Source of the DNA: an uncultured virus (IMG/VR IMGVR_UViG_3300000301_000004)
Lineage: Duplodnaviria > Heunggongvirae > Uroviricota > Caudoviricetes
Virus record (IMG/VR): IMGVR_UViG_3300000301_000004
DNA length: 64,000 nucleotides
Reading direction: 5' to 3' (one strand)
Shown: piece by piece, positions 6,101-63,939 of the stretch
Position numbering within the stretch: position 1 is the first letter of the stretch
Layout of the letters: each line of letters opens with the position of its first letter
Notes under the pieces: model-generated
Database searches by the model: none
What the model saw: only the letters and a program-made list of their open reading frames with translations
Told to the model about the DNA's origin: nothing
Position numbers and translations under genes: made by a program

Positions 6101-6251
6101 CAAGGGAATAAACAGACAAACCGTCTACACAATTTAGGATATGTGTGGGCGGTTTATTTTTGTTACAATAATTACAGGTAATAAACCATGCGCCACTACA
6201 AAAAAGTTTAATATCAACCAAATATGGTGGCGGCGGTAGGAGGACAAATGT

Positions 6252-6770
6252 ATGTATCCCGATAATTATATGAATCCTATGAATAATCCAATGACAAATC
6301 CTAATTATGGTTATAATCGTATGCAACAAGTTCAGCAAATGCAGAGAGCCATAAATCCTCAAGTTCCAAATATGTTCGGACAAGTAGAACAGCCACAACA
6401 AATGCAATCATTTATATCAGCAGTTCCTGTTACCTGTTTAGAAGAAGCTAAAGCTGCTAGAATTGCTTTAGATGGATCTATGAGTGTATTTGTGAATATT
6501 CAAGATGGTGAAATTTATACAAAACAGTTGAGTATGAATGGTTTAGCCGAATTAAAAACTTATAAGTTAGTAAATCCACAAGAAAATAAGATTGAATATG
6601 TAACATCTAATGATTTTAATGGTTTAAATCAGCGGGTACAGAATATAGAAAATTTCTTAAATCAGTTAGGAGGTCAGCAAAATGAATCTAATGCAAATGA
6701 TGCAAGCATTCAACCAACTCCGGCAAATGCAAAATCCTCAAACGGCAATGCAGCACATGTTCGGAAATGA
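6252..6770 (+). CDS. Hypothetical protein, N/Q/M/P-rich low-complexity N-terminus
   Basis: GGAGG RBS; ORF track. Confidence 0.8.
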   Translation: MYPDNYMNPMNNPMTNPNYGYNRMQQVQQMQRAINPQVPNMFGQVEQPQQMQSFISAVPVTCLEEAKAARIALDGSMSVFVNIQDGEIYTKQLSMNGLAELKTYKLVNPQENKIEYVTSNDFNGLNQRVQNIENFLNQLGGQQNESNANDASIQPTPANAKSSNGNAAHVRK

Positions 6771-15382: not shown

Positions 15383-15459
15383 CTTTTGAATTTACGAAGG
15401 GTATAATGTAATTGAAGGTGAAAACCTTACAAAATTTATTTAGAAAGTGTGGTAGTATT

Positions 15460-16368
15460 ATGAAAGTAATTTGCACAAGAAACAACGCAGAATTTGAATT
15501 GGTTAGCAAAGATGGAGATGACATCACTTTAAAAGATTTGAACTCCGGTAAAGAAAGAATTGTTAATCGCAAATCTTATGAACGCTTTTACAAGGAAGTT
15601 GAGGAAGAAGTAGTTGAGGAAGTCGAAGATCTTGAAGAAGAAGAAACTGAAGAGGAAGTTGACAAGGAAGCTTCTGAGGATTCTGAGGAAGAAGAAGTCG
15701 AAGATGCGGATGAAGACGCTGTTGAGGACTGCGAAGAAGAGGATGAAGAATTTGAGGAAGAACCTGAACCAGTAAAACCTGTAAAACGTGGTACTAAGAA
15801 AGCTGAAGCTAAAAAAGAACCAAAACCTAAAAAAGAGAAAAAAATAAAAGAGCCTAAAGCTCCACGTCAAATTTCTCCTTTGAAAGATGTTGTTGAAACT
15901 ATTGTTAAAGCCGCTGGTTGCACAATTTTTGTAACTCGTGTTAAAGGTTTCCACACCATTAAACTTGATGGTCATATGTGCATGGCCTTTACTTTTAGCA
16001 CTAAAGGAATTGTATTGTGGCTTCGTACTAAAGCTCTTGATGGCCTGAATATTGAATATAAAACTATGAAGCATATGTTTGATGCTCGTATTTCTTTAAC
16101 AGAGGATAATGAGAAAACTGCAAATCTTATCCGTAAATGTGTAGCTGCTTCTGTTGAATATCAAAAAGGTGTAAATACTCGTAAGGCTCAAAAGGCAGAG
16201 GCATTAGAGGCCGCACGCCAGAAAAAATTGGAAAAAGAAGAACAAAAGAAAAAAGAAGCAATTGCTGAAAAATTGGGTGTAAAACCTAAAAAGGCTGCAA
16301 AAAAAGCATCTAAAAAAGTAGAAACTCCAGAAGTTGAGGCAGAGGCATTAGAGGACGAGGAGGAATAA
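15460..16368 (+). CDS. Hypothetical protein with long acidic tract and Lys-rich tracts
   Basis: Own promoter TTGACT-17-TATAAT at 15379-15407; E/D run then KPKK/KKAAKK repeats. Confidence 0.75.
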   Translation: MKVICTRNNAEFELVSKDGDDITLKDLNSGKERIVNRKSYERFYKEVEEEVVEEVEDLEEEETEEEVDKEASEDSEEEEVEDADEDAVEDCEEEDEEFEEEPEPVKPVKRGTKKAEAKKEPKPKKEKKIKEPKAPRQISPLKDVVETIVKAAGCTIFVTRVKGFHTIKLDGHMCMAFTFSTKGIVLWLRTKALDGLNIEYKTMKHMFDARISLTEDNEKTANLIRKCVAASVEYQKGVNTRKAQKAEALEAARQKKLEKEEQKKKEAIAEKLGVKPKKAAKKASKKVETPEVEAEALEDEEE

Positions 16369-16371
16369 AAC

Positions 16372-17028
16372 ATGGCACGAGTTCGATATGATGAAGTAGA
16401 CCAATATACTACAAGTACAACTAATTTTTTTCAACTTAAAGAAGATCGCGATGTTGCTACAGTAAGAATTTTGTATAATAATGTTGACGATATTGAAGCT
16501 CATTCACTTCATCGTGTCAAAATTAATGGCCGAGATAAATGGGTTGAATGCCTAAGACAGATTAATGATTCTGTGGAAGTTTGTCCGTTATGTGCTTCTG
16601 GAAATAAAATTCAATTACGGGTTTTTGTTCCATTATATATAGAAGATGATGGTTCTGTTAAATTATGGGAACGTGGTAAAAAGTTTATCGATAAGCTCAC
16701 AAGTTTATGTGCGCGTTATAATCCTTTATGCTCACAATCAATTGAAATTGAACGTAATGGAGCAAAAGGAGAACAAACTACTGAATATCTTTTGTTTCCA
16801 ATAAAAGGTGACGATAAAACATTGGAAGATTTTCCAGAAGTTCCAGAAGTTCCGGAAACATTCTTATTAAATAAAACAGCAGAAGAACTGGATGAATTTT
16901 TAGATACTGGTAAAATGCCAGGATTGGAAGAACAATCCCAAAGAAGAAATCCTGCCACAGATGAAGGGGTTAAAAGACGTACACCTGCAGAACCTAAAGC
17001 TCGACGTAATCGTAGAGAAAGCTTCTAA
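16372..17028 (+). CDS. Single-stranded DNA-binding protein (gp32-like)
   Basis: FFQLK..D.ATVR, H...C...CPLC Zn site, VKLWERG; upstream of polymerase. Confidence 0.75.
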   Translation: MARVRYDEVDQYTTSTTNFFQLKEDRDVATVRILYNNVDDIEAHSLHRVKINGRDKWVECLRQINDSVEVCPLCASGNKIQLRVFVPLYIEDDGSVKLWERGKKFIDKLTSLCARYNPLCSQSIEIERNGAKGEQTTEYLLFPIKGDDKTLEDFPEVPEVPETFLLNKTAEELDEFLDTGKMPGLEEQSQRRNPATDEGVKRRTPAEPKARRNRRESF

Positions 17029-19411: not shown

Positions 19412-20335
19412 ATGTTAGATTTATATTTTGCGGGACAAGTTACAGATCATGTAGATAAGTGCTTGTTCGATATGGGAGCCAATCATCTATTCAGTTATTT
19501 GAACGAAAGGAAAAATATTGATAGATGGATTGGCTGGATTAATCAATACGGTCGAAAAGGTAAACTATTTATTGACAGTGGTGCTTTTACTGCATGGACT
19601 AAAGGTACATATATTAATGTTGATGATTATGTTTACTTTTTAAACGACAGAGTGCAGTATATTGATTTATTTGGTCAATTGGACTGTATTCCAGGAAACA
19701 TCAGGCAAAAGCCTACACAAGCACAAGTATTAGATGCAGCTGTAAAAACATGGAAAAATTATTTGTATATGAGGGATGCTGTTTTAAATAAGGATGGCTT
19801 ACTATATACGTTCCATGTGGGTGAACCGATATGGTGTTTGCGTAGAGCCTTAGAATGGCGAGATGAAAATGGCCAACCATTAAAATATATCGCTCTTGGT
19901 GGTATGGTGGGCAAGCCTAAAGATGTACAAAAGAACTTTTTATCGTTATGTTTTGATATTATAAAAAGTTCGAGTAATCCCAATGTTAAAGTCCATGCTT
20001 TTGGAATGACTGTAAGAAAAACTTTAGTCCAATATCCAGTTACTTCTGCGGATAGTTCTTCGTGGATTCAAAGCGGGCATAATGGAGCAATTTATACTCC
20101 ATGGGGTACTATTATTATTAGTGCTCAGCAAAAGGATAAAATGGCTCACCCTTTAAATGGTAGTGCTGTAGCTTTGGAAGATTTAAAATCTTACATTAAA
20201 AGCAAGAATTTCGATTTTGAGCAGTTAATGGAAGATTATGTTCAACGCGATTTGTGGAATGTAACATTTTTGATGGATTGGGCAAAAGAATATACTTATC
20301 ATGGTGGAAAAATTATTAGGAGGCGATTATTTTGA
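19412..20335 (+). CDS. dpdA: Phage DNA 7-deazaguanine transglycosylase (TGT fold)
   Basis: FIDSGAFTAW, LDCIPG, FHVGEP, YIALGG, VHAFG, SADSSSW; heads the que/folE cluster next to the polymerase. Confidence 0.85.
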   Translation: MLDLYFAGQVTDHVDKCLFDMGANHLFSYLNERKNIDRWIGWINQYGRKGKLFIDSGAFTAWTKGTYINVDDYVYFLNDRVQYIDLFGQLDCIPGNIRQKPTQAQVLDAAVKTWKNYLYMRDAVLNKDGLLYTFHVGEPIWCLRRALEWRDENGQPLKYIALGGMVGKPKDVQKNFLSLCFDIIKSSSNPNVKVHAFGMTVRKTLVQYPVTSADSSSWIQSGHNGAIYTPWGTIIISAQQKDKMAHPLNGSAVALEDLKSYIKSKNFDFEQLMEDYVQRDLWNVTFLMDWAKEYTYHGGKIIRRRLF

Positions 20336-21018
20336 AAGCAGTTGTATTGTTGAGCGGTGGTGTTGATAGCGCTACTTGTTTAGGTATGGCAGTTGATTGT
20401 TATGGCAATAAAGAGGTAACAGCGTTATCTATTTACTACGGCCAAAAGCATGAGAAAGAATTAGCTTGTGCTAAAAAGTTAGCGGAACATTATGGTGTTC
20501 AACATATTGTTCGGGATATTAGTAGTATTATGGAATTGAGTGATTGCTGTTTATTAAAAAATAGTAAAAATGAAATTAAACATACTACCTATGCCGAACA
20601 ATTAAAGGAATTAGGTGGTGAAGGGACTGTTAGTACCTATGTACCATTTCGTAACGGCTTAATGTTATCTTCAGCGGCGTCTTTGGCTTATTCCCTCGGG
20701 GGCTGTGAAGTGTGGTATGGCGCTCATGCAGATGATGCGGCTGGTAGGGCATATCCGGACTGTACTCCTGAATTTGTGGATGCCATGCGTAAAGCAATTT
20801 TAGAAGGTACTGGCGGCCAACTTACATTAAGAGCTCCTTTGATTATGTTTAATAAAGGCGAAGTTGTTAAAGCTGGATTGTCATTGAAAGTCCCTTATAA
20901 ATTTACATGGTCTTGTTATGAGGGTGGAGAAAAACCTTGTGGAGTATGTGGTACATGTAGAGATAGAGCTCATGCTTTTGAAGTTAATGGTGTAAAAGAT
21001 CCAGCTTTGCGAGGTTAA
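20332..21018 (+). CDS. queC: 7-cyano-7-deazaguanine synthase
   Basis: LLSGGVDSAT, YGQKH, YVPFRN, YPDC, TWSCY..CGVCGTC. Confidence 0.96.
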   Translation: MKAVVLLSGGVDSATCLGMAVDCYGNKEVTALSIYYGQKHEKELACAKKLAEHYGVQHIVRDISSIMELSDCCLLKNSKNEIKHTTYAEQLKELGGEGTVSTYVPFRNGLMLSSAASLAYSLGGCEVWYGAHADDAAGRAYPDCTPEFVDAMRKAILEGTGGQLTLRAPLIMFNKGEVVKAGLSLKVPYKFTWSCYEGGEKPCGVCGTCRDRAHAFEVNGVKDPALRG

Positions 21019-21020
21019 TT

Positions 21021-21224
21021 ATGGCAAAAATGGTAGACGGTAAAACCATCAAAGAACTAGAAACAAGAGCAAAGACTGCTTTATATGCAAATGAATATAC
21101 TAATGGTAATTTATTAGTTTCTGCTGAAGTATTATTAAATCTTATTCACGAAGTAAAAGTAAAAAAATATCATAATCGTATTAAACCAGGAGGAAGAAAA
21201 TGTACACAGTTATCAAAGAATTAG
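21021..21224 (+). CDS. Hypothetical protein within que operon
   Basis: ORF track. Confidence 0.55.
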   Translation: MAKMVDGKTIKELETRAKTALYANEYTNGNLLVSAEVLLNLIHEVKVKKYHNRIKPGGRKCTQLSKN

Positions 21225-21538
21225 AAATATCTGCATCTCATTATTTAAATCTGCCTTATGAGAGTAAATGCGCTAATCTTCACGGTCATAATTGGAAAGT
21301 TAAAATTTATTGCAAAGCTAGAGAACTTTCTGATTATGGCATGGTTGAGGATTTTACACATATTAAAAAATGTGTAATGGATGTATTCGATCATCAAAGT
21401 ATTAATCAAGTTGTTCCTTTTAATCCAACAGCTGAAAATATTGCAAAATATATTTGTGATATTATTCCAACGTGTTACAGAGTAGAAGTACAAGAAAGCG
21501 AAGGGAATTTAGCAATTTATGAACAAGAAGATATATAG
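21200..21538 (+). CDS. queD: 6-carboxytetrahydropterin synthase
   Basis: SASHYL, CANLHGHNW, FDH, NPTAENIA. Confidence 0.95.
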   Translation: MYTVIKELEISASHYLNLPYESKCANLHGHNWKVKIYCKARELSDYGMVEDFTHIKKCVMDVFDHQSINQVVPFNPTAENIAKYICDIIPTCYRVEVQESEGNLAIYEQEDI

Positions 21539-22172
21539 TGTAAATGAAATGTTTTTAAGTGTGGAAGGTGAAGGAATTAGAACTGGATTTCTTTCAACTT
21601 TTGTACGCTTTAATGGCTGTAACTTATGTTGTAGTTATTGTGATACCCTTTACGCACAAGATGTTCAAGAACCAAATATGTCTTTACAGGAAATTCTTGA
21701 AAGCATTGCTAAAATTGGTTGTCATCGTGTAACTTTAACAGGCGGAGAACCATTATTTAGAGCGGGTATGAACGATCTTATTGAAGCTTTATCTTGGGGT
21801 GGGTATCATGTGAATATTGAAACAAATGGTTCTGTGCCGATTGAACCATGTTGTAGTTTGCCCGGAGTATTTGTTACAATGGATTGGAAATGTCCGAGTA
21901 GTGGTATGCTAGGTTCAATGCTTGAAAGTAATCTTAAAAAGCTCACTTATAATGATGTATTGAAATTCGTTGTTGCTACTAAAGAAGATTTAGAAGAATT
22001 TAAACGAATTTATAATATGGATTTGATTTGTACCTATGTTCTTAGCCCAGTGTATGGGCAGATTGAACCGAAAGAACTTGTTCAATTTGTTAAAGATAAT
22101 ATGCTTGAAAATACAATGGTACAAGTTCAACTTCATAAAATTATATGGAATCCGGATGAAAGAGGAGTATAA
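21519..22172 (+). CDS. queE: 7-carboxy-7-deazaguanine synthase (radical SAM)
   Basis: EMFLSVEGEG, GCNLCCSYCDT, TGGEP, IETNG, QLHKIIW. Confidence 0.95.
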   Translation: MNKKIYSVNEMFLSVEGEGIRTGFLSTFVRFNGCNLCCSYCDTLYAQDVQEPNMSLQEILESIAKIGCHRVTLTGGEPLFRAGMNDLIEALSWGGYHVNIETNGSVPIEPCCSLPGVFVTMDWKCPSSGMLGSMLESNLKKLTYNDVLKFVVATKEDLEEFKRIYNMDLICTYVLSPVYGQIEPKELVQFVKDNMLENTMVQVQLHKIIWNPDERGV

Positions 22173-22173
22173 A

Positions 22174-22752
22174 ATGGAAAATACTAAAGAACAAATGCTT
22201 ATATCCGCAGGAGAGCTTATTTTACAGGCTTTTGGAAAAGATCTTCAAGATCCTTCATTAAAGGAAACTCCTAAAAGATTTGCAAAAATGATGTTAGAGC
22301 AACTTGAGGGTGAGTTCTATTCTGATTCCGATCTTGTTAGTAAGTTTGGCAAGTGTTTTGAAACAACTGGTCATGGTATTGTAACCTGTACAAATATTCC
22401 TGTTTTTAGTCACTGTGAACATCATCTTGCATTGATGTATAATATGAATGTAAGTATTGGATATTATCCAAGAACGAAAGTAATTGGACTTTCGAAGATG
22501 GCACGTATTGCTGATATGGTTGCAAAAAGATTTCAAATTCAGGAAAGAATGGGATTTAGTATTCATCGTATTATGTCTGCTATTTTATCGACTGACAATG
22601 TAATTGTAATGATTGAAGGAGAACATTCTTGTATGACTGCAAGAGGTATTAAAAAGCCAGGAGCGGTTACAAGAACTTTGCATACTAGTGGCGTTTTTGA
22701 ATATCTTGATGAACAACAATCTTTTATTAATTTAGTAAGGAGTAGTAAATAA
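22174..22752 (+). CDS. folE: GTP cyclohydrolase I
   Basis: ETPKRFAK, SHCEHH, IGLSKMARI, QIQER, HSCMTARG. Confidence 0.95.
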   Translation: MENTKEQMLISAGELILQAFGKDLQDPSLKETPKRFAKMMLEQLEGEFYSDSDLVSKFGKCFETTGHGIVTCTNIPVFSHCEHHLALMYNMNVSIGYYPRTKVIGLSKMARIADMVAKRFQIQERMGFSIHRIMSAILSTDNVIVMIEGEHSCMTARGIKKPGAVTRTLHTSGVFEYLDEQQSFINLVRSSK

Positions 22753-31829: not shown

Positions 31830-32018
31830 ATGATTAAAAATATCACTCACTGCTTGCGGTGTGGTAAACCATTGAAGGATAGCATTTCAAGACAAAGAGG
31901 ATACGGTGCTGAATGTTATAAAATCATAACTAGGAATCGTTCCTATAAGAATTATAATTTATTGAGGATTGGTGAACAAAATGGAAATAGTGGCAAAAAG
32001 GATTTACAGGGAAATTGA
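31830..32018 (+). CDS. Small Zn-finger protein (DUF6011-like)
   Basis: CLRCGKPLKDSISRQRGYGAEC. Confidence 0.7.
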   Translation: MIKNITHCLRCGKPLKDSISRQRGYGAECYKIITRNRSYKNYNLLRIGEQNGNSGKKDLQGN

Positions 32019-32322
32019 AAATATTCTTATTAGAAATAATAAAGTTCCTAATAATGTAAATCAAAAAGCAAATAATATTTTTAAATGTGTACAAGCATTA
32101 AAGAGTTATTGTCAACAACACAGCGATTTACATTATAACCTAATAGTTGAATATTACGAAACTCCTTTTACTATTAATCGTGACCAAAAATTAAAACAAT
32201 TTGCTGATAAATACAGTATTAATATTAGTCACGTTTACTTAATAAGAAGAGAGATTCTTTTGCGGTTTTTGGTAATGCTACAACAAAAAAAACTTTATAC
32301 AATACCAGTCGAAAATGCTTGA
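31981..32322 (+). CDS. Putative transcriptional regulator (C-terminal HTH)
   Basis: FADKYSINISHVYLIRREIL. Confidence 0.5.
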   Translation: MEIVAKRIYREIENILIRNNKVPNNVNQKANNIFKCVQALKSYCQQHSDLHYNLIVEYYETPFTINRDQKLKQFADKYSINISHVYLIRREILLRFLVMLQQKKLYTIPVENA

Positions 32323-32377
32323 CTAGTATTTAATTTTATGGTATACTTTAGTTACAAATAAAAAAGGGGTGTATATC

Positions 32378-32692
32378 ATGAAAAAATTTCAATTATTAAA
32401 ATGGACTGCCGAGGTTAGGGAAAAAGAACTGCAATTTCTGTTTTTTAATGGCCATAGCGTTGATTTGTTAGACGACTCTAACCCCACTGTAATATTCGAA
32501 ACTGAGTCCGAAAGCGAAGCCTATAATTATTTAGAAAAAGAAAGCGAATTGCTTTGCATTCATATTTTTAACCACTGCGGTTTAAAGTTCGCCAATGTTG
32601 ACTGCCTTATGTTGCAGGAAGTTGAAGTAGACGAAGACGGCGATGTTGTAGAATGTGAATATCTGGATATTCGTTACCCGGAGGGGGAATAA
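32378..32692 (+). CDS. Acidic hypothetical early protein
   Basis: Promoter TTGACT-17-TATACT at 32319; AAGGGG RBS. Confidence 0.7.
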   Translation: MKKFQLLKWTAEVREKELQFLFFNGHSVDLLDDSNPTVIFETESESEAYNYLEKESELLCIHIFNHCGLKFANVDCLMLQEVEVDEDGDVVECEYLDIRYPEGE

Positions 32693-32695
32693 AAA

Positions 32696-32917
32696 ATGAA
32701 AAAGTTAACAGTAATACTATTTATATTGGTAGTTACCTTTTTAACAACTCGGCCAGTCGATTCGCCTGAAGGTTTTAAGCCAAAACCACGGCTAATCACC
32801 CAAAACGAAACACACGAATTTTACGAAGAGCCACAAACACACACTATAATTAAGGTTAACAAGCGTACTGGCGAGGCAGTCGACCTGCAAAAAACTCGTG
32901 AACAGTTATTTAAATAG
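32696..32917 (+). CDS. Small protein with N-terminal signal/TM
   Basis: RBS; followed by terminator 32912-32943. Confidence 0.65.
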   Translation: MKKLTVILFILVVTFLTTRPVDSPEGFKPKPRLITQNETHEFYEEPQTHTIIKVNKRTGEAVDLQKTREQLFK

Positions 32918-33066
32918 CCTGTATTTGCAGGCTATTTTTTTTTGCATTTTTGCCAATTACCCTAAATTTATTCATATTTTAGTTTTAACGGTTTTTAGGC
33001 TTTACAGGTATAAATATATGCGGTCACACTAAAAAACTTAATACAGGCCATTTATGAAGACGAAAG

Positions 33067-33099
33067 TTATCCACAGGCTGTGAATAAAGTTGTGGATAA
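33067..33099. promoter_or_regulatory. Cluster of three DnaA boxes
   Basis: TTATCCACA (33067), TGTGAATAA (33079, 1 mismatch), TGTGGATAA (33091). Confidence 0.7.
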
Positions 33100-33197
33100 C
33101 TTTTTTTGAAAATTTTTTCATAAAAAGTGTTGACTTTTAAATCACAATCGTTTATAATTAAGTTACAAGGTAAACAAATAATAAAGGGGGCAAAAAT

Positions 33198-33491
33198 ATG
33201 TTAACTAAAAAACAAAATATTGAATTAGGTCGGTTTGCATTGTATATCGAAAGCCATGATGAACAATTTAAATATATGTTGCTAAACCGACTGCAAACAG
33301 ATTGCAAATACTATTTAGGTTATGGCAACGGCAATGAACGCCACTTGTGGGGCGAAACTGTTGAAATGCACATCGAATATATGTACATTATATATGATAG
33401 TTTAAAAATTAAGCCAGAATGGCTAACCGAGCAACAAATTAAAGTTTATAGCGATTTAATGTTACAAATTAAAAATGATAAAAATTTTTAA
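33198..33491 (+). CDS. LPD11-like protein
   Basis: YMLLNRLQTDCKYYLGYG...HLW...KPEWLT; own promoter at 33130. Confidence 0.7.
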   Translation: MLTKKQNIELGRFALYIESHDEQFKYMLLNRLQTDCKYYLGYGNGNERHLWGETVEMHIEYMYIIYDSLKIKPEWLTEQQIKVYSDLMLQIKNDKNF

Positions 33492-33559
33492 AAAGTGCTT
33501 GACTTTATAAGCAAAATCGTTTATAATAAGTATAACAAATAAACAAGGGGGTCATAAAA

Positions 33560-34216
33560 ATGACTGAACAAAAATTAAACAAACTAGAACAACAAATTAT
33601 TAAATTACTGGAGTTGGCGAACAAAAATACCAACCAAGCCGAGGCCATTGCAGCGGCCGCTAAAGCCCAGGAATTAATGGCAAAGTACAACATTAAATTA
33701 CAAAACATTAGCAAAAAACCTGCAAATATCGTGGCTGAATTTGCAGTGAATGCAAGGGGTAAAAGTTACCGTTTTGCGCTGGCAACAATTTTAGCTAATA
33801 ATTATGGTGTAAAATTAGTATGGGCTGAAAAAATGATTCCAGTATTTTATGGTTACGAAAATAACGCTAAAACGGTTACCAAAATTTACGAATGGTTATG
33901 GCAGGCCATTCACCGTATGGCCGATAGTTACCAAACGAAAATTTGGAAACAGGGTAACGGAGTTAAAGGCGTGTATAACAGTTTTGTCGATGGTTTTTTA
34001 GTAGGTTTAAAAAAGGAGCTTGACAAAAACTGCACGGCTTTAAAAATTACAGTTGCCGAGGAAGTAAATACCGAGTTCGACAAATTTATGGCCGAAAAAG
34101 GGGCAGGCACTTTTAAAACTAAAAAGCGTAACGCTCCTGTTGATACATGTGCATTTTTGCAAGGAGTAGTTGAAGGTTCGACTATTATGCAACGTAAACA
34201 AGTGGAGGCTAAATAA
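33560..34216 (+). CDS. DUF2786-domain protein
   Basis: IIKLLELA....EAIAAAAKAQELMAKYNI; own promoter at 33499. Confidence 0.75.
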   Translation: MTEQKLNKLEQQIIKLLELANKNTNQAEAIAAAAKAQELMAKYNIKLQNISKKPANIVAEFAVNARGKSYRFALATILANNYGVKLVWAEKMIPVFYGYENNAKTVTKIYEWLWQAIHRMADSYQTKIWKQGNGVKGVYNSFVDGFLVGLKKELDKNCTALKITVAEEVNTEFDKFMAEKGAGTFKTKKRNAPVDTCAFLQGVVEGSTIMQRKQVEAK

Positions 34217-34956
34217 TGTTAACTATGTTGCTAGTATCATGCGTCATTGTGTTTGGCGCATGGTACTTAATTAATAACGAATATGCTTTTACAAAATTAT
34301 GTGGTTTTATTGTAGTAACAATTATTTATATTGCAGGTTTCCCTATTTTCATGCTGCTCAATTGGTATAAAATGTTAAAAAGGTTTAATAACACATTTAG
34401 GAAGGATGACTAATATGAAAAATGGTGTACATTTACAAGGTTTTAAGGGCTATTTTGAAGGTACTAAAGCAATTGATATTAAAGTTGGTGACGTATTAGT
34501 TTGGAATTATGGATTATTAAGCAAAGTTATTAGTAAAGAAATGTCACCTTCAGGTAAAAGTGTTTATTTAATTACACAGCCATTTACTAGAACAATTCAT
34601 GGTAATGTTGAATACGATATGTTACGTCGAAATCGATATAACATCAATACTTTATTAGTCACTAATCCATTAATGCCATTATAGGAGGTTTAATTATGAT
34701 TATTGGAAATGATATAGTATTAAATGTTGAGGACTTTTTAGGAGCGATGATTAATAGTTATTTACTGTTTGCTCCTTATGCCGACCTTTCATATGATGAA
34801 ATAGCCCAATTACTTGAAGAGTATTTTTGTGATTATATAGCACAATATGGTATTGTAATATTAAAACTATATACGAAAAAAACCGAAAAAGGAATATTTA
34901 TTGATTATAAATATAATGGCATTAAAAAGTGTTATATTTATACCCAACAATTTTAA
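34216..34956 (+). CDS. Three small hypothetical ORFs (34216-34413, 34406-34684, 34696-34956)
   Basis: Coupled ORFs in track. Confidence 0.55.
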
Positions 34957-35062
34957 AAAAGTTTAAAAAAAAGTATTGACTTTGCTATAAAACTATGTTA
35001 TAATTTATTTAACAGGTAAAGCAAAGTCAATACTTGTTAAAAACAAAAAAGGGGTGTACATT

Positions 35063-35365
35063 ATGAACTTATACGAATTATTTAAAAAATTTGAAACTGA
35101 ATTTTTGGCAGGCCACGAAAAAATTAAAACAGAGCTTGACTTCGAACTTTTCGTCGGCAAACTGAGTGAACAAATTTTAGGTGATGTATATAGCCTTGAC
35201 ACTGTTTATAAAACTGGGGGTAATCATATTGAAGTCACTGCCGTTGGCTATGGTTACAGTTTTGAAGTTGAATATCATATTACTAAACATAAACTATTAA
35301 AGTTAGCAGTAATCAATACACTTTTCGGCGACCGTCGAATTACTTATGCAGTTGAATATGATTAA
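35063..35365 (+). CDS. Hypothetical early protein
   Basis: Promoter TTGACT-17-TATAAT at 34976; AAGGGG RBS. Confidence 0.7.
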   Translation: MNLYELFKKFETEFLAGHEKIKTELDFELFVGKLSEQILGDVYSLDTVYKTGGNHIEVTAVGYGYSFEVEYHITKHKLLKLAVINTLFGDRRITYAVEYD

Positions 35366-35953
35366 GTCCGTTTTTAAATTAAGTACGTTTTTAAAATATA
35401 CAAATTTTTAAATTGTTGAAATTTTTAGGCTGGCAAGGGGTATATATAAACCCTTTACCAGCCTATTTATTATTAATGTAGGTACATTTTCGTTGGCGTT
35501 AAAATGGTTATTCGTATAAAAAATAGCCCTAATTGCAAGGGCTATATATTAGTTATCTGCAGAATGTAAAATTCGGCAAAATTTTAAATTTAAAAATCAT
35601 TAGCAATTAAGAAAATAGCTAAAATAACAATATTAAGAATATAGGAATAACTCTTAATTTGAAATCATTATCAAAGAAGGTAGCATTGCATTTAGGGCAG
35701 CAAACGGTTTAGGGCAGCATCGTATATTTGTACTTAACAGCAGCTTTACCCTATTAGTAATTATTACTAATTTGCTTTATACATTGGCATATTTAAACTA
35801 TACCACTTCGATTTAAATTTGTAAATAGGTTACAATAAAAAAAGATGCTAAAATTTTTTATAAAAAAGTATTGCAATTTTACAAGCAAAGGTGTATAATA
35901 TAGTTAAGGTAAAAAGTTACCTACAAATAAATAAAAAAAGGGTGTGTTTATTT

Positions 35954-36457
35954 ATGGCAAAAGTGGCAAAAACCAAAAATAGTGGTACTTACAAAAATTT
36001 AGTAGGGGCAACCAATTATTACAATGCAGTTTTGCAAAACCTGCAAAACCTACAAATACCAGTTAACAAAATTAATAATATGCAATATGTATTAAATGCA
36101 GTAAATATTGCAACCTACAACACTAACCCGGCGGCCTTGCAATACAACCCAATAGTTACCCAAACAAGTAATGGTACACAGTACACTTTTAACTACATAC
36201 AGTGGCAAATGTACCCACAGTTACTTATCGATATTGGTATTACTACCGATATAGTAATAGTTATTAATAACAACGGTGTAGTAAATGTAAACCAGTTGCA
36301 AATGGTATACGAGTGCAGTTATGCACCGGCGTTTATTAGTAATGTGTTGCAAATACCGTATGGTGGCTATTTAAATACTACTTTTAATAATGCACCAGTG
36401 CAAATAGTAAATTATGCTAGCGAGGGCTTTTGGCAAATAGGCATTGGTAACAATTAA
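35954..36457 (+). CDS. Asn/Gln-rich orphan protein in GA-free zone
   Basis: Promoter TTGCAA-17-TATAAT at 35871; terminator 36469-36503; only 4 D/E and no R in 167 aa. Confidence 0.75.
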   Translation: MAKVAKTKNSGTYKNLVGATNYYNAVLQNLQNLQIPVNKINNMQYVLNAVNIATYNTNPAALQYNPIVTQTSNGTQYTFNYIQWQMYPQLLIDIGITTDIVIVINNNGVVNVNQLQMVYECSYAPAFISNVLQIPYGGYLNTTFNNAPVQIVNYASEGFWQIGIGNN

Positions 36458-36575
36458 AAATAATTATTAATAAGGTAGGCAAAAACCTACCTTATTTTTT
36501 TTTGTAAAAGTGCTTGCAAAATTATGCTTTTTATGGTATAATAAAGGTAACAAATAAACAAGGGGGTAAATACCT

Positions 36576-36899
36576 ATGCTAACCAATTATGTAAACAATT
36601 TAAGCAATTTAGTTAACCAATTTGTACCAATTTACCAAACAATACTCGATACTATTAATAACCCTAACGAAATTAGTAATATTTACCAATTACTCGATAA
36701 TATTACCGAGGAGTTAAATGCAAACGGTAACGAGTGCGAGCTCGAGTTTATGGCTAATAACAAATTTATACTAACAACATATACTGGTAATGGTAATTGC
36801 ATTATAAATGTAATGCCCGGCGGCGCCAATATTAGTTGCAGCGTGGGTATATGTGGCACTGCAAATTTACTTTATACCGATACATATAATTTTTATTAA
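36576..36899 (+). CDS. Asn-rich orphan protein in GA-free zone
   Basis: Promoter TTGCAA-17-TATAAT at 36514; AAGGGGG RBS; terminator 36907-36933. Confidence 0.75.
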   Translation: MLTNYVNNLSNLVNQFVPIYQTILDTINNPNEISNIYQLLDNITEELNANGNECELEFMANNKFILTTYTGNGNCIINVMPGGANISCSVGICGTANLLYTDTYNFY

Positions 36900-36984
36900 T
36901 AATTTGCCCCTTGCAAAAGGGGTATTTTTTTTTGGCTAAAAACAGGCAAAAAAATAACCTGCAAAATTGCAGGTTATTAATTTT

Positions 36985-37251
36985 TTAAACAATGCAAACG
37001 CCAACAAAAACAATATAGCCATTTTTATTAGTACGCCAATTTAAACAATAGCAATTATTATAGTTAGGGTGTTTTACTGTTATACTAAAATTGTTGCGTT
37101 TTGGTTTGCCATAAAATTTTAGTGTTAAAACCCTAAAACCAAGCGCTTTAACATACTGCAACAATACAGCACTTGTAATTTTAACGCCATAATTTAAATT
37201 GTGGCAATTTAATTGCGCAAAATGTTTGTACAAATATTTACTAACTTGCAT
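36985..37251 (-). CDS. Basic orphan protein with no Asp/Glu; the only independently promoted minus-strand gene recognised
   Basis: Minus-strand TTGTAA-17-TATAAT (37310-37282), AAGGGGG RBS, hairpin terminator 36948-36979. Confidence 0.7.
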   Translation of the reverse strand: MQVSKYLYKHFAQLNCHNLNYGVKITSAVLLQYVKALGFRVLTLKFYGKPKRNNFSITVKHPNYNNCYCLNWRTNKNGYIVFVGVCIV

Positions 37252-38589
37252 ATTAAATACCCCCTTGTTTATTATGGTTTTATTATAACATACTTGCTTG
37301 TAAATTACAATATACAATATTAAAAAATTACAAGCAAAATATGTAAACATATTTTATAAAATGATGTAAAAGTAATAAAAAATATAATAAAAATAGCGTA
37401 TTTTGGCAAATTAGTAAATTGGCAATAGGCTTTATAGGCATATAAATTGGCTATAAAAGGTTTTTGCTTGCAAAGGTATAAATAATAGGGCAGGGTAAAA
37501 AAGTATTAATACAGGCAAAATTTGGCGGCGGCGTAGTAAGTACAAACGTATTTTAGTGACTATTGAAAATATTAAATAATAAATAACAATAATAGTAATA
37601 ATACAACAAACAATAACACAGAATAATTAGCAAACAATATAAATAGCAATAATTACCAACAAGCAATAAAAAAGATTAAAAAGCCAGTATTTATGCAGAT
37701 TGCAGGTAAATAAGCAAATATAATTAGCTAGTAAAATAAGAGTAATAGGAATTAATATTAATAGTAATAATAATGCTGTTTAATAACAAATATTAGTAAG
37801 GATAATGAACTCTAATAATACTATATAAAATTTAAGCCGCCGCGCTGTGTAAAAATTGTTAGGTTTTAATAATATATACAATATAGAAAATACTACAATA
37901 ATAAATAATATACCTATAAATAATACATATATAAAGAGCTTTTAAACAAGTAAATATACCATATAAGTAGCTATTAGATATTTATTAATAACATACCATA
38001 TATGCCAACATAAATAATATACCATTAGCTATTTACCAATAATACATACAATGTGGCAATATACAAGATATAGTAACATAAACAATGTGGTAATATGGGA
38101 AATATAGTGTTTAAGGGCTACAAACAACATATACATATAAGGATTTAATACTATTTTTGCCGCTGCATGATAAGCACAAGCTCATTATTAGTAACAATTA
38201 CTGATTATGAAGCCTTATTAATATATAATATATGTATATATACAATATATACCATAATACAAGCCATGCAAACAAGCAATATATTATAAGCAATAGCCAT
38301 TATTAATTAAAAAGCCAGTGTTTATGCCATTTGGCGGTAAATAATAAATGAATATTATTAGTAATATAGATGATTATGAAGTATAGACAAATAGTAAAAG
38401 TGTATTATTAGTATATATACAAAATAATACCTTACTATTAATTAGCATAATAAGCTAATAGCAATAGCTATTGATAAGCATAAGCAACTAGATGCCCTTA
38501 CCATGTTATTAATCTTCATAATTAATACCCCCAGGAGTCCGTTTTGAAGATGTGGCCTACCACCCACCCCTACCATAATACATCTCCAT

Positions 38590-38807
38590 TAATGGATGAT
38601 TTTCCATAATCAAAAATACAGACTCCCTATAGAGTGATTTCTATCAATCAAAAATACAGACCCCTATAGAGTGATTTTCCATAATCAAAAAATATACCCC
38701 CTTAATGGATGATTTCTACCAATCAAAAACACAAGCCACGTAAAACCATTTAAGGAGTTAAATCATAAAATCTAAAAGCAAAAATACAGACCCTTAATGG
38801 ACGATTT
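38590..38807. repeat. ~38-bp-period repeat array with TGATT-N6-AATCA palindromes
   Basis: Palindrome at 38597, 38635, 38672, 38710 plus partial unit at ~38780. Confidence 0.85.
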
Positions 38808-38826
38808 ATGTCGTTAAAAATAATTG

Positions 38827-38855
38827 TTGACAAATATGTTAGATAGCATTATAAT
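38827..38855 (+). promoter_or_regulatory. Consensus promoter for 39-45 kb small-gene array
   Basis: TTGACA-17-TATAAT. Confidence 0.8.
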
Positions 38856-48662: not shown

Positions 48663-49680
48663 TCAGGATTATTGGCAACAAAGAGCAGAACGTAATTTGC
48701 AAGCTGTGGAAGATATTGCAGTTGATTATAATCTTGAATTAGCTAAAGAATATAAAAAAGTAATTAAAGAGCTTCAGGAAGAATTAATGCTTTTTTATGC
48801 TAAATATGCAGAAGAAAATAAAATTTCTTTGGAAATGGCTAAAAAAAGATTATCCGGTAAAGAATTATCAGAATTTAAAGAAATTATTCAGGATTATATT
48901 GAACAGGCTTCACAGTATGATACTAAAAATGCTCAAAGTTACCTTAAAAATTTAAAGGAACTTCAAGATCGTGCAAGATTATCCAGATTAGAATTATTAA
49001 TAGCCGAATATAGGCATGCTATTGAAATGCTATTATTAAAACAGGAAGATCAACAACCGAATATATACCTACAAGGCTATGAAGATATGTATTACCATAC
49101 TTTATATGACGTGCAGACTTATTCTGGCGTAGGCATGTCCTTCACTACCCCTTCCAAAGATTTAGTTATTAGTGTTCTCTCACAAAATTATTTAGGAGAG
49201 GATTTTAGTGATCGTCTTTGGAAAAATAAAGAAATGCTAATTTATAATCTTAAAAAAGAAATGCAATTAGCTTTTGCGGCTGGAAAACCATCTAGATATG
49301 TTGCTGATAAAATTGCCAGTGCTATGAATACACGCCAAGGTGTAGCAATGACTTTAGTCAGAACTGAAATGAATAATGTAGCAAATCAGGCGGCTTTACA
49401 AGCTTATACACAAGCTGGCATAAAAGAATATCAACTTTTAGCAACTTTGGATTTTAAAACATCAGAAATTTGTATAAGTATGGACGGTAGAATTTTTAAA
49501 GTATCTAAAGCTGAACGAGGGGTAAACTTTCCACCATTTCATCCAAATTGTAGAACAACAACTGTTCCAGTTATAGATGGGCAATCTTATACACAACGCA
49601 TTGCTAAAGAAGAAAGTTATTATACAGTTGATAAAAATATCAGTTATAAACAATGGTTAAAAGAATATGTAAATAAATAA
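48655..49680 (+). CDS. Minor head protein (SPP1 gp7/Mu F)
   Basis: LVRTE, ATLD.KTS.IC, PPFHPNCRTT. Confidence 0.9.
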   Translation: MSNQDYWQQRAERNLQAVEDIAVDYNLELAKEYKKVIKELQEELMLFYAKYAEENKISLEMAKKRLSGKELSEFKEIIQDYIEQASQYDTKNAQSYLKNLKELQDRARLSRLELLIAEYRHAIEMLLLKQEDQQPNIYLQGYEDMYYHTLYDVQTYSGVGMSFTTPSKDLVISVLSQNYLGEDFSDRLWKNKEMLIYNLKKEMQLAFAAGKPSRYVADKIASAMNTRQGVAMTLVRTEMNNVANQAALQAYTQAGIKEYQLLATLDFKTSEICISMDGRIFKVSKAERGVNFPPFHPNCRTTTVPVIDGQSYTQRIAKEESYYTVDKNISYKQWLKEYVNK

Positions 49681-62727: not shown

Positions 62728-63631
62728 TAATATTGTTATGAAAATTACTGATTATATCGCTCATTTATGGCATGACACAGATAACGACATTGTAATGGCT
62801 GAAAATGTTAATGGTTGGGAAAATACATTGCAACAGCATGCAGAATTTTTAAAAAGATTTTCTTGGCAACCGAATACACCATATCCTAAAAATTCTGTGT
62901 TACTTTATCCTTTTGGATTGCATACTAAATTAGTATCTAAAAATGCTGGTACAAGTGGAAGTAATGAACCAACATGGTCGGAAGCAAGTGGACAAGAAGG
63001 TTCCAGAACGATAACAGATAATGATATTATTTGGGAAGAACAACCAATTCAAGTATCTGCAGATACTACACCAATAGGAACGATTAAACAGCAATTATGG
63101 AATAGCGCTCCTCCAGGATACTTAAAAATGACACAAAGTCATGTATTAAATAGATCAGAATATCCAGAATTGTGGGATTTTGTTCAAAAATATTATCCTT
63201 TAACTTCTGAAGTTGAATGGCAAAAAATGTTAACATTAAATAAAACTTCTGTTGGCTATTTTTCAACTGGTGATGACAGTACAACTTTTAGAACTCCATT
63301 TATATTAGATTTTGGTCGTGGTGGAGAAAATGCTGGTTCTTTCTTTAAAGATCAGAATAAGCTCCATAACCATACGGCTAATATAAATACTACTCCAGCG
63401 CAAGGTTCTTTCCGTACTTGGAAGTTTGATCCAGTAGCTTCCGGAGTATTTTCATCTACCTATTTAGGACGATGGGCAAACAGCAAAAATGGTGGAGATG
63501 ATGCCATGTGGCAAGTTAACTTTAATTTAGCAAATACATTAAATAATATTACTATTGGAAATTCTGGAGAATCTGAAGGATTTCCAAAACACGTTATAAT
63601 GCCTTATTACCTGAGAGTTTTAAATATTTAA
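62720..63631 (+). CDS. Tail fibre protein, constant N-terminus + invertible C-terminus (orientation A)
   Basis: Collar PIGTI...YPELW...GDDSTTFRTP; contains left IR at 63339-63374. Confidence 0.85.
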   Translation: MANNIVMKITDYIAHLWHDTDNDIVMAENVNGWENTLQQHAEFLKRFSWQPNTPYPKNSVLLYPFGLHTKLVSKNAGTSGSNEPTWSEASGQEGSRTITDNDIIWEEQPIQVSADTTPIGTIKQQLWNSAPPGYLKMTQSHVLNRSEYPELWDFVQKYYPLTSEVEWQKMLTLNKTSVGYFSTGDDSTTFRTPFILDFGRGGENAGSFFKDQNKLHNHTANINTTPAQGSFRTWKFDPVASGVFSSTYLGRWANSKNGGDDAMWQVNFNLANTLNNITIGNSGESEGFPKHVIMPYYLRVLNI

Positions 63632-63939
63632 TATTCTTAAATAATATGGCATAATTATATGCTTTGGATAAGCTTCTTCTCCACCTGTATTCACGCCTGT
63701 AGATTCAATTTTAATATCATGATTATGGTCGCCATTAAATTGTATAACTTCACGAGTATCACTTTTATGAGCGCATTCGCCAGCCCATGTACCAGTTCCA
63801 GAAAATACACCAGTTGTTCGACCCCAACTGCCCCCAACCTGATTTCCCGCAATGAAAGTTCCTCGAAGTCGTGTAGTTCCAGTCTTATTTCCAGTGGCCA
63901 AATTATGGTTATGGAGCTTATTCTGATCTTTAAAGAAAG
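63339..63939. mobile_element. Invertible tail-fibre segment bounded by perfect 36-bp inverted repeats
   Basis: ctttctttaaagatcagaataagctccataaccata at 63339-63374 and its exact reverse complement at 63904-63939. Confidence 0.88.
63620..63939 (-). CDS. Silent alternative tail-fibre C-terminus (orientation B)
   Basis: Reads in frame from IR: FFKDQNKLHNH-NLATGNKTG...EAYPKHIIMPYYLRILNI*, paralogous to ...EGFPKHVIMPYYLRVLNI*. Confidence 0.85.

Follow-up and report, generated by a model that had tools for sequence, protein, structure and literature searches.

The DpdA enzymes of Escherichia phage CAjan and Pseudomonas phage iggy insert the 7-deazaguanine preQ0 in place of guanine. They are the only two phage DpdAs with a mapped motif, and GA is a target of both. 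The iggy enzyme recognises GA strictly and modifies 97% of such sites, whereas the CAjan enzyme modifies GA and GGC, with TGA scoring slightly below the other NGA contexts. Both phages encode the set DpdA, FolE, QueD, QueE and QueC. Work on immunity to such DNA describes Dag1, a bifunctional glycosylase/lyase with many relatives, and the GmrSD-like GrwAB as attacking 7-deazaguanine DNA, and phages as escaping both by losing DpdA function. Here, we describe a 64,000-nucleotide stretch (the window) of an uncultured virus of the Caudoviricetes (IMG/VR record IMGVR_UViG_3300000301_000004), which encodes a DpdA homologue within the same gene set and in which the word avoided likewise has GA as its core. 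At 35677-37362, it contains a core of three small genes (ORF1, ORF2 and ORF3) from which [A/G/T]GA is almost completely excluded on both strands, while CGA is tolerated.

Throughout, DGA denotes GA without a C before it, and TCH its complement, TC without a G after it. An initial annotation, made from the letters alone, had counted 13 GA and 4 TC dinucleotides between 35846 and 37360, and our direct recount returned exactly these numbers, whereas the whole window averages 64.8 per kb for GA and 32.8 for TC. As had also been noted, all 13 GA open an Asp or Glu codon, in ORF1 and ORF2 (nine of them in ORF2); 12 are CGA, and the only other one is the unavoidable second codon of a GAG GAG pair in ORF2 (36708/36711). 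All four TC lie within TCGA, and Ser is written solely as AGY (AGT nine times, AGC three times). Outside the anomalous domain, 10% of GA occurs as CGA and 18% of TC as TCG; with this 10% background, the binomial probability that at least 12 of 13 GA follow a C is 1.4e-11. The observation is exact and far beyond chance. The limits originally given for the zone need correction, since the depletion there is real but the core starts at 35677, some 170 bp to the left of the stated limit, and the flanks are partly depleted as well. Within the core, two DGA/TCH sites are found instead of the ~152 expected (Poisson P ~1e-62), the density of these sites being 84/kb in the whole window and 90/kb outside the domain, and a DGA-free stretch of this kind occurs only once in a 113.9-kb relative (G001). 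The core is enclosed in a graded domain of ~6 kb (32.4-38.5 kb), which stops abruptly on the right where an iteron array lies. The statement that the rest of the genome uses GA freely thus holds outside this domain but not inside it, and the exclusion is polar and wider than first reported. It also differs from genome-wide avoidance of a restriction word, as the word has three nucleotides, is asymmetric and is depleted only between 32.4 and 38.5 kb.

The depletion exceeds what codon usage or protein sequence would produce, as expected of target-word avoidance driven by selection, and this is supported by codon controls in addition to the binomial and Poisson tests above. Two kinds of control were used, with 2000 runs each for every protein or gene. 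Recoding the proteins with the codon usage of the genome gave on average 27.5, 21.4 and 11.7 DGA/TCH sites for ORF1, ORF2 and ORF3 (minima 16, 12 and 4), whereas 0, 1 and 0 are observed; shuffling the synonymous codons that each gene already uses gave 15.4, 14.4 and 4.7, and the observed counts were reached in a fraction of 0, 0 and 0.0015 (0.15%) of the runs. The depletion therefore stays significant under the codon-shuffled controls that the initial annotation had proposed. Since both controls exceed the observed counts, codon choice and codon order are both tuned. The codons placed before GA end in C (ATC, ACC, TAC, AGC, CTC, AAC and TGC), and GGA, AGA, TTC and TGA are unused. The proteins themselves are reshaped: compared with the genome, D+E account for 3.6% of residues vs. 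13.5%, R for 0.8% vs. 4.0%, and N for 16.6% vs. 6.3%.

Such a composition could in principle be mutational, if a TC-specific cytosine deaminase (APOBEC- or DddA-like) acting on transcription-exposed single-stranded DNA had erased TCH/DGA through C-to-T changes. N is over-used, as D-to-N changes would make it, and the surviving share of D and E is near that expected from a filter, with ~10% of background GA lying after C. K, however, is under-used, though E-to-K changes would raise it, and the core retains a G+C content of 30.0% compared with 32% genome-wide, whereas the erasure of ~150 sites should, by our own arithmetic, cost about 8 points. Moreover, the ORFs are open, with pN below pS, the predicted folds of ORF1 and ORF3 are confident, and other highly expressed genes are unaffected. 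Among 289 polarised single-nucleotide polymorphisms from six genomes, covering 20.9 kb outside the zone (window 9412-30332 and loci L054-L058), C-to-T changes affect 24 of 1694 TCH sites vs. 94 of 4136 other C not preceded by T. Neither an excess of C-to-T at TC nor the expected loss of G+C was found; hence, the polymorphism spectrum lends no support to the TC-specific deaminase that had been suggested as an alternative, and we consider a mutational origin highly improbable. The TC depletion that APOBEC enzymes cause in animal viruses is mutational, affects the whole genome and is partial; it resembles the present case in that TC and GA are reduced on both strands, but the present zone retains its G+C, shows no TC-to-TT footprint and exempts TCG.

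Comparison of relatives indicates that the exclusion is kept by purifying selection. No GenBank phage matched 35400-39000 in blastn, and the relatives are viral contigs, in which the loci were located via the neighbouring DUF2786 gene. The zone is present in all loci that have a DUF2786 protein of at least 54% identity and that reach it, at a length of 0.83-2.1 kb with 0-6 internal sites (L082 and L028 end before it), whereas 12 loci of unrelated phages with DUF2786 at 31-41% identity (L030-L041) have no zone. The relatives form two clades, between which DUF2786 is ~60% and DpdA 90% identical; L101 (DUF2786 54%) is an indel-rich copy of clade 1. Protein identity between the clades is 44, 29 and 56% for ORF1, ORF2 and ORF3, with pS at ~0.75 and pN at 0.29-0.49, and since pS is saturated and exceeds pN, these are real, constrained genes. 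In clade 2, a C precedes 10 of 11 GA codons. Six close relatives carry 80 distinct substitutions in the zone, ~22 of which would be expected to create DGA/TCH, but only five new sites stand (one in L016, one in L017 and three in L018). Taken with the codon controls, the two saturated clades and this shortfall bear out selection for a motif in which [A/G/T]GA is excluded on both strands and CGA tolerated. The genes, in turn, come and go: L025 lacks ORF1 and has lost the start codon of ORF3, L027 carries a shortened ORF1, L017 is without ORF2, and an internal part of ORF3 is deleted in frame in L014. Among database proteins, truncated or frameshifted versions of ORF1 and ORF3 are likewise numerous. 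The DNA left after such loss or truncation is always DGA-free. Only the ORF1-3 families recur as gene content of the zone, three other ORFs of at least 45 aa being found in one locus each. Several contigs of relatives break inside the zone, as expected of a strain-variable spot.

Import from a genome that is DGA-free throughout, the cassettes keeping the composition of their donor, would agree with this variable presence, with the existence of recombinant forms of ORF1 and with the moron-like make-up of the cassettes, each of which has its own promoter and terminator (Table 1). Yet the property persists through saturating divergence within the lineage and grades into the resident genes on the left, which use the same device of a C before GA (36 of 105 cases). 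All homologues of ORF1 and ORF3 that we found are at least 47% identical to the window proteins over the aligned stretch, those whose DNA was fetched lie within this same phage lineage, and no homologue of ORF1-3 was found in an unrelated, wholly DGA-free genome. Foreign origin is hence hardly credible to us.

The assignment of DpdA at 19412 in the initial annotation is confirmed at the level of homology by PHROG 887, and FolE, QueD, QueE and QueC adjoin it (Table 1). In tblastn, the homologue is 39% identical over 100% of the Dp-1 and MS1 genes, which are annotated as queuine tRNA-ribosyltransferase, and 184 phage records match; identity with proteobacterial DpdAs is ~29-34%, and the match to the NCBIfam DpdA model (E = 2.5e-4) falls short of the family cut-off. 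No Pfam (TGT) match and no PDB sequence match were obtained for it, and none of the 77 window ORFs scanned has a Pfam match to QueF. DpdA is found in four of the five records of relatives that were searched, each of the four at least two-thirds complete, and the fifth is a 55%-complete fragment; thus, a survey of the kind suggested earlier, for relatives that bear the zone but lack dpdA, returned none. FolE, QueD, QueE and QueC accompany DpdA in both the window and G001. Viral contigs yielded no DpdA relatives of intermediate identity: they fall at 100% and 89-90% (a cut copy in L063 at 99%), and then at 36% or below.

Because the phage encodes DpdA and GA is the mapped target of two preQ0-inserting DpdAs, our preferred reading is that selection clears the island of the word targeted by the phage's DpdA itself. 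It is, in our opinion, the best reading, though a tentative one that we put forward for experiment. Published work bears out GA as the target context in CAjan, as the initial annotation had stated, and adds iggy; by our own estimate, agreement with one of the ten strand-symmetric dinucleotide classes would arise by chance about 1 time in 10. According to this proposal, the phage DNA would be modified by DpdA, which would swap guanines for 7-deazaguanine supplied by the phage-encoded preQ0 pathway, acting on the G of [A/G/T]GA, most strongly in AGA, then in GGA, then in TGA, and sparing CGA. The three cassettes of the core, which we infer to be early and which appear independently transcribed, would be selected to hold no target, so that nowhere but in the core would the virion chromosome carry ordinary guanines alone, and a similar but milder selection would act on the DNA on either side. 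The likeliest pay-off would be that the templates of these accessory early genes could not be marked, and would escape blocking, nicking or excision by modification-dependent glycosylases and nucleases. A more elaborate version, a 'stealth launch pad' from which the unmodified island fires counter-defence genes whose templates are invisible to immune enzymes hunting for modified bases, seems doubtful to us.

The flanks show how the exclusion is graded. In the left shoulder, the density of DGA+TCH is 28-58/kb vs. a background of 90 +/- 11 (minimum 66), and relative to background AGA occurs at 0.18x, GGA at 0.44x, TGA at 0.79x and CGA at 1.63x; the clade 2 equivalents are 0.23, 0.46, 0.53 and 1.43. 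Of the three forbidden words, TGA is thus avoided least in either clade, just as it is the weakest context in CAjan. A C precedes the 36 of 105 GA codons mentioned above, compared with 5 of 55 in the early operon to the right (binomial P = 2e-11). In the right extension, TC is found twice vs. 36 expected and GA 25 times vs. 68 expected, with an observed/expected ratio (O/E) of 3.2 for GC; the depletion is hence strand-asymmetric, affecting mainly one strand, and this is likewise so in the clade 2 loci L029 and L027. The right extension matches no Rfam family. At 38.5 kb, where the direct repeats begin, the density jumps back, reaching 82/kb at 38501. A 52-nt element is present twice, at 37675 and 38306. 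The iteron array is a candidate origin, pac site or operator array; it could be pac, because the region is syntenic with phage Flasso, whose record marks pac ~6 kb upstream of the terminase, but an origin or operators would suit it equally well.

This geometry bears on an opposite explanation, in which it is unmodified DGA/TCH that is attacked by a DNA-destroying enzyme of host or phage, preQ0 shielding the sites elsewhere and the domain being exposed at a critical moment. Lying near the iterons and an AT-rich stretch (a likely origin or pac), the domain would be heavily transcribed, single-stranded or not yet modified, and would survive by lacking sites. A precedent exists in endonuclease IV of phage T4, which attacks TCA in single-stranded cytosine DNA but leaves modified DNA intact. 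In keeping with such an attack, the domain is positional rather than gene-bound, with a gradual left slope, a core and a sharp edge at the iterons, and the one-stranded depletion of the right extension fits single-strand exposure. Moreover, proven GA modification needs no island, as CAjan has none, and the coincidence with the DpdA motif would be explained equally well if modification had evolved against the same enzyme. On the other hand, we found no candidate gene for the enzyme (Pfam on the 77 window ORFs gave RecU, a Cas4-like protein and an HD protein alone); the core is equally clean on both strands, including the coding strand, where this is costly; and since the whole genome would be unmodified just after replication, a local solution is hard to justify. 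We regard this explanation as possible, though not probable. Two further candidates were rejected. DarT2-type ADP-ribosylation, with its reported motif TNTC, does not fit, as all TCH is avoided whatever the base at -2 and TATC(G) persists at 36225-36228; avoidance of CRISPR protospacer-adjacent motifs (PAMs) was dismissed by reasoning, as the selection acting on any one PAM would not suffice to exclude it totally, and the genome would stay unprotected elsewhere.

By consensus scans and reading of the sequence, the core consists of three independent promoter-gene-terminator cassettes, each gene having a predicted promoter, ribosome-binding site, ORF and terminator, as in morons. The -35 hexamers of the core lack the GA of the consensus TTGACA, whereas strong promoter-like sites outside the core, at 33130, 33499, 34976 and 38827, have TTGACA or TTGACT; further promoter-like sites in the core lie at 35825 (leftward) and, antisense within ORF2, at 36829. 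Promoters, terminators and spacers are as clean as the ORFs, and the upstream DNA at 35677-35870 has one site. Given that both strands, together with promoters, spacers and terminators, are clean, the cause most simply acts on double-stranded DNA, recognising D-G-A. A requirement at the RNA level, that transcripts lack GA (and UC), for instance because of a sequence-specific endoribonuclease involved in host shut-off or defence, would suit the fact that the core is plausibly transcribed nearly throughout, from the three cassettes and the two additional sites, and that the right extension is without GA on the minus strand alone, as a leftward leader RNA running into ORF3 would be. However, GA and TC are both excluded whatever the direction of the cassette, which would call for two specificities or for antisense RNA everywhere; ORF1 has 0 TCH though no antisense promoter covers it; and promoter spacers and upstream DNA are no less clean. 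An RNA-level cause is therefore very improbable.

Table 1. Positions of the modification genes, the depleted domain and its cassettes in the window; promoter-like sites and terminators are from consensus scans.
Feature	Position	Strand	Description
DpdA homologue	19412-20335	+	PHROG 887, E = 1.1e-44
QueC	20332-21018	+	Pfam 2e-59, TIGR00364
QueD	21200-21538	+	Pfam PTPS 1e-27
QueE	21519-22172	+	Pfam Radical_SAM 5e-13
FolE	22036-22752	+	Pfam GTP_cyclohydroI 1e-49
Left shoulder	32369-35676	+	eight small genes ending the rightward array (32369-35365); partial depletion
DUF2786/DUF7168 gene	33560-34216	+	within left shoulder
Terminator-like hairpin	35523-35545	bidirectional	closes the rightward gene array, left of core
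Core	35677-37362	both	1686 bp; two DGA/TCH sites, at 35844 and 36711
ORF1 promoter-like site	35871-35899	+	TTGCAA-17-TATAAT
ORF1	35954-36457	+	167 aa, N/Q/Y-rich
Terminator after ORF1	36469-36496	bidirectional	
ORF2 promoter-like site	36514-36542	+	TTGCAA-17-TATAAT with TG extension (TGnTATAAT)
ORF2	36576-36899	+	107 aa
Terminator hairpin between convergent ORF2 and ORF3	36905-36924	+	
Terminator hairpin between convergent ORF2 and ORF3	36953-36978	bidirectional	
ORF3	36985-37251	-	88 aa, basic; AAGGGGG ahead of ATG
ORF3 promoter-like site	37282-37310	-	TTGTAA-17-TATAAT with TG extension (TGnTATAAT)
Right extension	37363-38480		1.1 kb, no ORF of at least 50 aa, A-rich, C-poor
Iterons	38575-38820	+	five direct repeats of ~38 bp, spacing 37-38 bp, last 92 bp
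Early-operon promoter	38827-38855	+	perfect TTGACA-17-TATAAT; operon from 38991, DGA density normal

Several observations weigh against avoidance of the phage's own DpdA target in the island. Every NGA of CAjan is modified, CGA included, and SalI sites (GTCGAC) of iggy are blocked, so that CGA is modified there as well; because both known enzymes modify CGA, the exemption of CGA would require a new DpdA specificity. CAjan has proven GA modification and yet no GA-poor stretch, its lowest 500-bp window holding 24 GA+TC vs. a median of 54. No comparable zone was found in Dp-1 and Flasso, the closest named relatives by DpdA, or in 11 other DpdA loci (L064-L074). A scan for the largest gap of all 2- and 3-mers, applied to Flasso, Dp-1, CAjan and L064-L074, gave best scores of 12 or less, compared with 38-47 for the GA/TC words in G001. 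Nearer to the core, the early operon right of the domain has a perfect sigma-A-type promoter with TGA and a normal DGA density, and the mainly one-stranded depletion of the right extension is not predicted by a purely double-strand model. L018 carries three CGA-to-TGA changes in ORF1 despite a 100% identical DpdA. Finally, discrepancies of L101 relative to the window lie mostly in GC/CG contexts (TCGA, 19 of 27 sites) and are lowest at AGA, GGA and TGA, which would argue against DGA modification if they came from native long reads; as strain divergence is mixed in, we give this little weight. An attack on the unmodified word fits the points concerning CGA, CAjan, the early operon and the single strand about as well as does avoidance of the phage's own word.

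The interpretation offered in the initial annotation, an unmodified island in a DpdA phage, consequently survives in part. Selected exclusion of DGA, the DpdA and preQ0 genes and GA as a target elsewhere all stand. A DpdA motif of DGA that spares CGA gains no support from CAjan and iggy. Access for the host RNA polymerase, proposed as one purpose of the island, gains no support either, since strong sigma-A-type promoters outside the zone carry TGA in the -35 hexamer and the early operon has normal DGA; for the same reason, it is not a general rule that early genes must be unmodified. Nor do islands accompany GA modification generally, as CAjan demonstrates.

The three changes in L018 fit the mutability of CpG elsewhere in the genome, which is ~2.2 times that of other C (C-to-T at 28 of 727 vs. 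95 of 5348 sites in the window segment and loci used for the polymorphism spectrum). Together with the CGA-to-TGA changes of L018 and the CG/GC mismatches of L101, this CpG hypermutability hints at cytosine methylation of the phage DNA. Pfam recognised no methyltransferase in the window. If present, a methylated C in CGA/TCG could explain the exemption of CGA. Two clade 2 DpdA loci, L059 and L063, reached gap scores of 14-15, but for an unrelated ATA/TAT gap. In L059, it spans 369 bp without ATA/TAT (6117-6486, score 15), with 199 bp lacking TA, at a position equivalent to about 15.5 kb of the window, in ORF 15412-16365, which has a weak low-complexity match to Nop14.

Our literature search, which left most subscription journals outside its range, turned up no modified phage described as having a local region that is motif-free or unmodified. 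What is already known is genome-wide avoidance of target words and genome-wide or sequence-specific modification of bases. Classical restriction-site avoidance shares with the present case that the word of a DNA-acting enzyme is selected out, but it is genome-wide and partial and concerns mostly palindromic words of 4-6 bp, whereas here the word has 3 nt and is asymmetric, and the exclusion is near-total, local (1.7 kb with slopes) and alters amino-acid usage. To exclude a trinucleotide locally, almost totally and from both strands alike, with altered proteins as a result, is a new form of target avoidance, and a tie to the phage's own modification would be a new idea. If the core is indeed kept free of the phage's own word, hypermodification would have costs for phages, which they manage by position; the specificity of DpdA (AGA > GGA > TGA, never CGA) would be predictable from sequence alone; and the three orphan proteins, two of them with predicted folds, would be candidate inhibitors of modification-dependent immunity. 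If instead the unmodified word is attacked, there would be an unknown enzyme of DGA/TCH specificity to which 7-deazaguanine is the antidote. In either case, the motif prediction (DGA modified, CGA not) is directly testable.

The classical form of avoidance also occurs in this genome. Outside 32000-38500, GAATTC is found 0 times vs. 22.6 expected, AGTACT 0 vs. 8.6, ATGCAT once vs. 12.6 and CTGCAG twice vs. 11.2, and the O/E values of GGCC, GATC and CTAG are 0.49, 0.60 and 0.61. Palindromic six-mers have an O/E of 0.95 if DGA is internal, of 0.86 if GA is absent, and of 0.69 if GA comes only first or as CGA, numbers too small to weigh for or against DGA protection. The iggy report states that preQ0-modified DNA is still cut by EcoRI.

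Early regions read by the host RNA polymerase are familiar from the host-takeover module of SPO1 and the first-step-transfer DNA of T5. Like these, the ORF1-3 cluster, which sits at the junction of gene arrays, combines small orphan genes with strong host-type promoters, ribosome-binding sites and terminators; to our knowledge, no word exclusion is known in the SPO1 and T5 regions. The products of ORF1-3 match no Pfam or PHROG family. ORF1 is predicted to fold into two helices followed by a beta-sheet (pLDDT 87.2, pTM 0.85) and ORF3 into two helices followed by a four-stranded sheet (pLDDT 86.3). Compared with the PDB (Foldseek, VIA-align), neither fold rises above background, with a best Z of 6.3 for ORF1 and of 6.4 for ORF3 (IraD, rmsd 3.0 over 80 residues), and a search of the ESM Atlas gave no match for either. 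Paralogy of ORF1 and ORF3 was rejected (hhalign probability 0.03%). The relatives of ORF1 form 72 protein clusters, all unnamed or 'hypothetical protein', and those of ORF3 form 44. In their small size, fast evolution, variable presence and presumed early timing, ORF1-3 resemble the genes of anti-defence islands, and their size, strong promoters, rapid evolution and individual dispensability make them candidate counter-defence or host-takeover proteins. ORF1 is mosaic, the relative P0010 fusing a clade 1 N-terminal part to a clade 2 C-terminal part, and some forms (P0010, P0008 and P0014 were aligned) have a 9-residue insert or a C-terminal extension.

The window is nearly the whole genome (~66 kb) of a contractile-tailed phage of low-GC Gram-positive type. 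In the Pfam scan of its 77 ORFs, the structural genes include a contractile tail of PBSX/Xkd type, an SPP1-type portal and a Terminase_3 large subunit, and the replication module comprises an SNF2 helicase, a DnaD-like initiator, DnaB, primase, PolA, clamp and clamp loader, and RecA. Nearly all genes point rightward, the rightward array ending at 35365. Replication and capsid modules are syntenic with those of Streptococcus phage Dp-1 and partly with those of Bacillus phage Flasso. The PBSX/SPP1 type of the Terminase_3 and the pac site marked in the Flasso record suggest headful packaging. The contigs of relatives look circular or are concatemers, the repeating unit being 66,290 bp long. G001 (113,939 bp) has ~48 kb more than the window, between its matches to window 40009 and 40271, and G003 holds two copies of DpdA, 90% and 99% identical; these extras may reflect chimeric or concatemeric assemblies or a large accessory insert. 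A 218-aa ORF at 16372-17025, between primase and PolA, occupies the position of the sigma factor Gp69 of Dp-1; it has no Pfam or NCBIfam match and is possibly a phage-encoded sigma factor that directs middle or late transcription. Near the tail-fibre end lies a reverse-transcriptase gene (425-1444; RVT_1 4e-19, PHROG 1423 3e-114), and a quick blastn of the window ends gave no template/variable repeat pair of a diversity-generating retroelement near it. In the same tail-fibre region, a 601-bp segment (window 63339-63939) is reversed relative to its neighbours in G001 (48986-49586) and is possibly an invertible segment.

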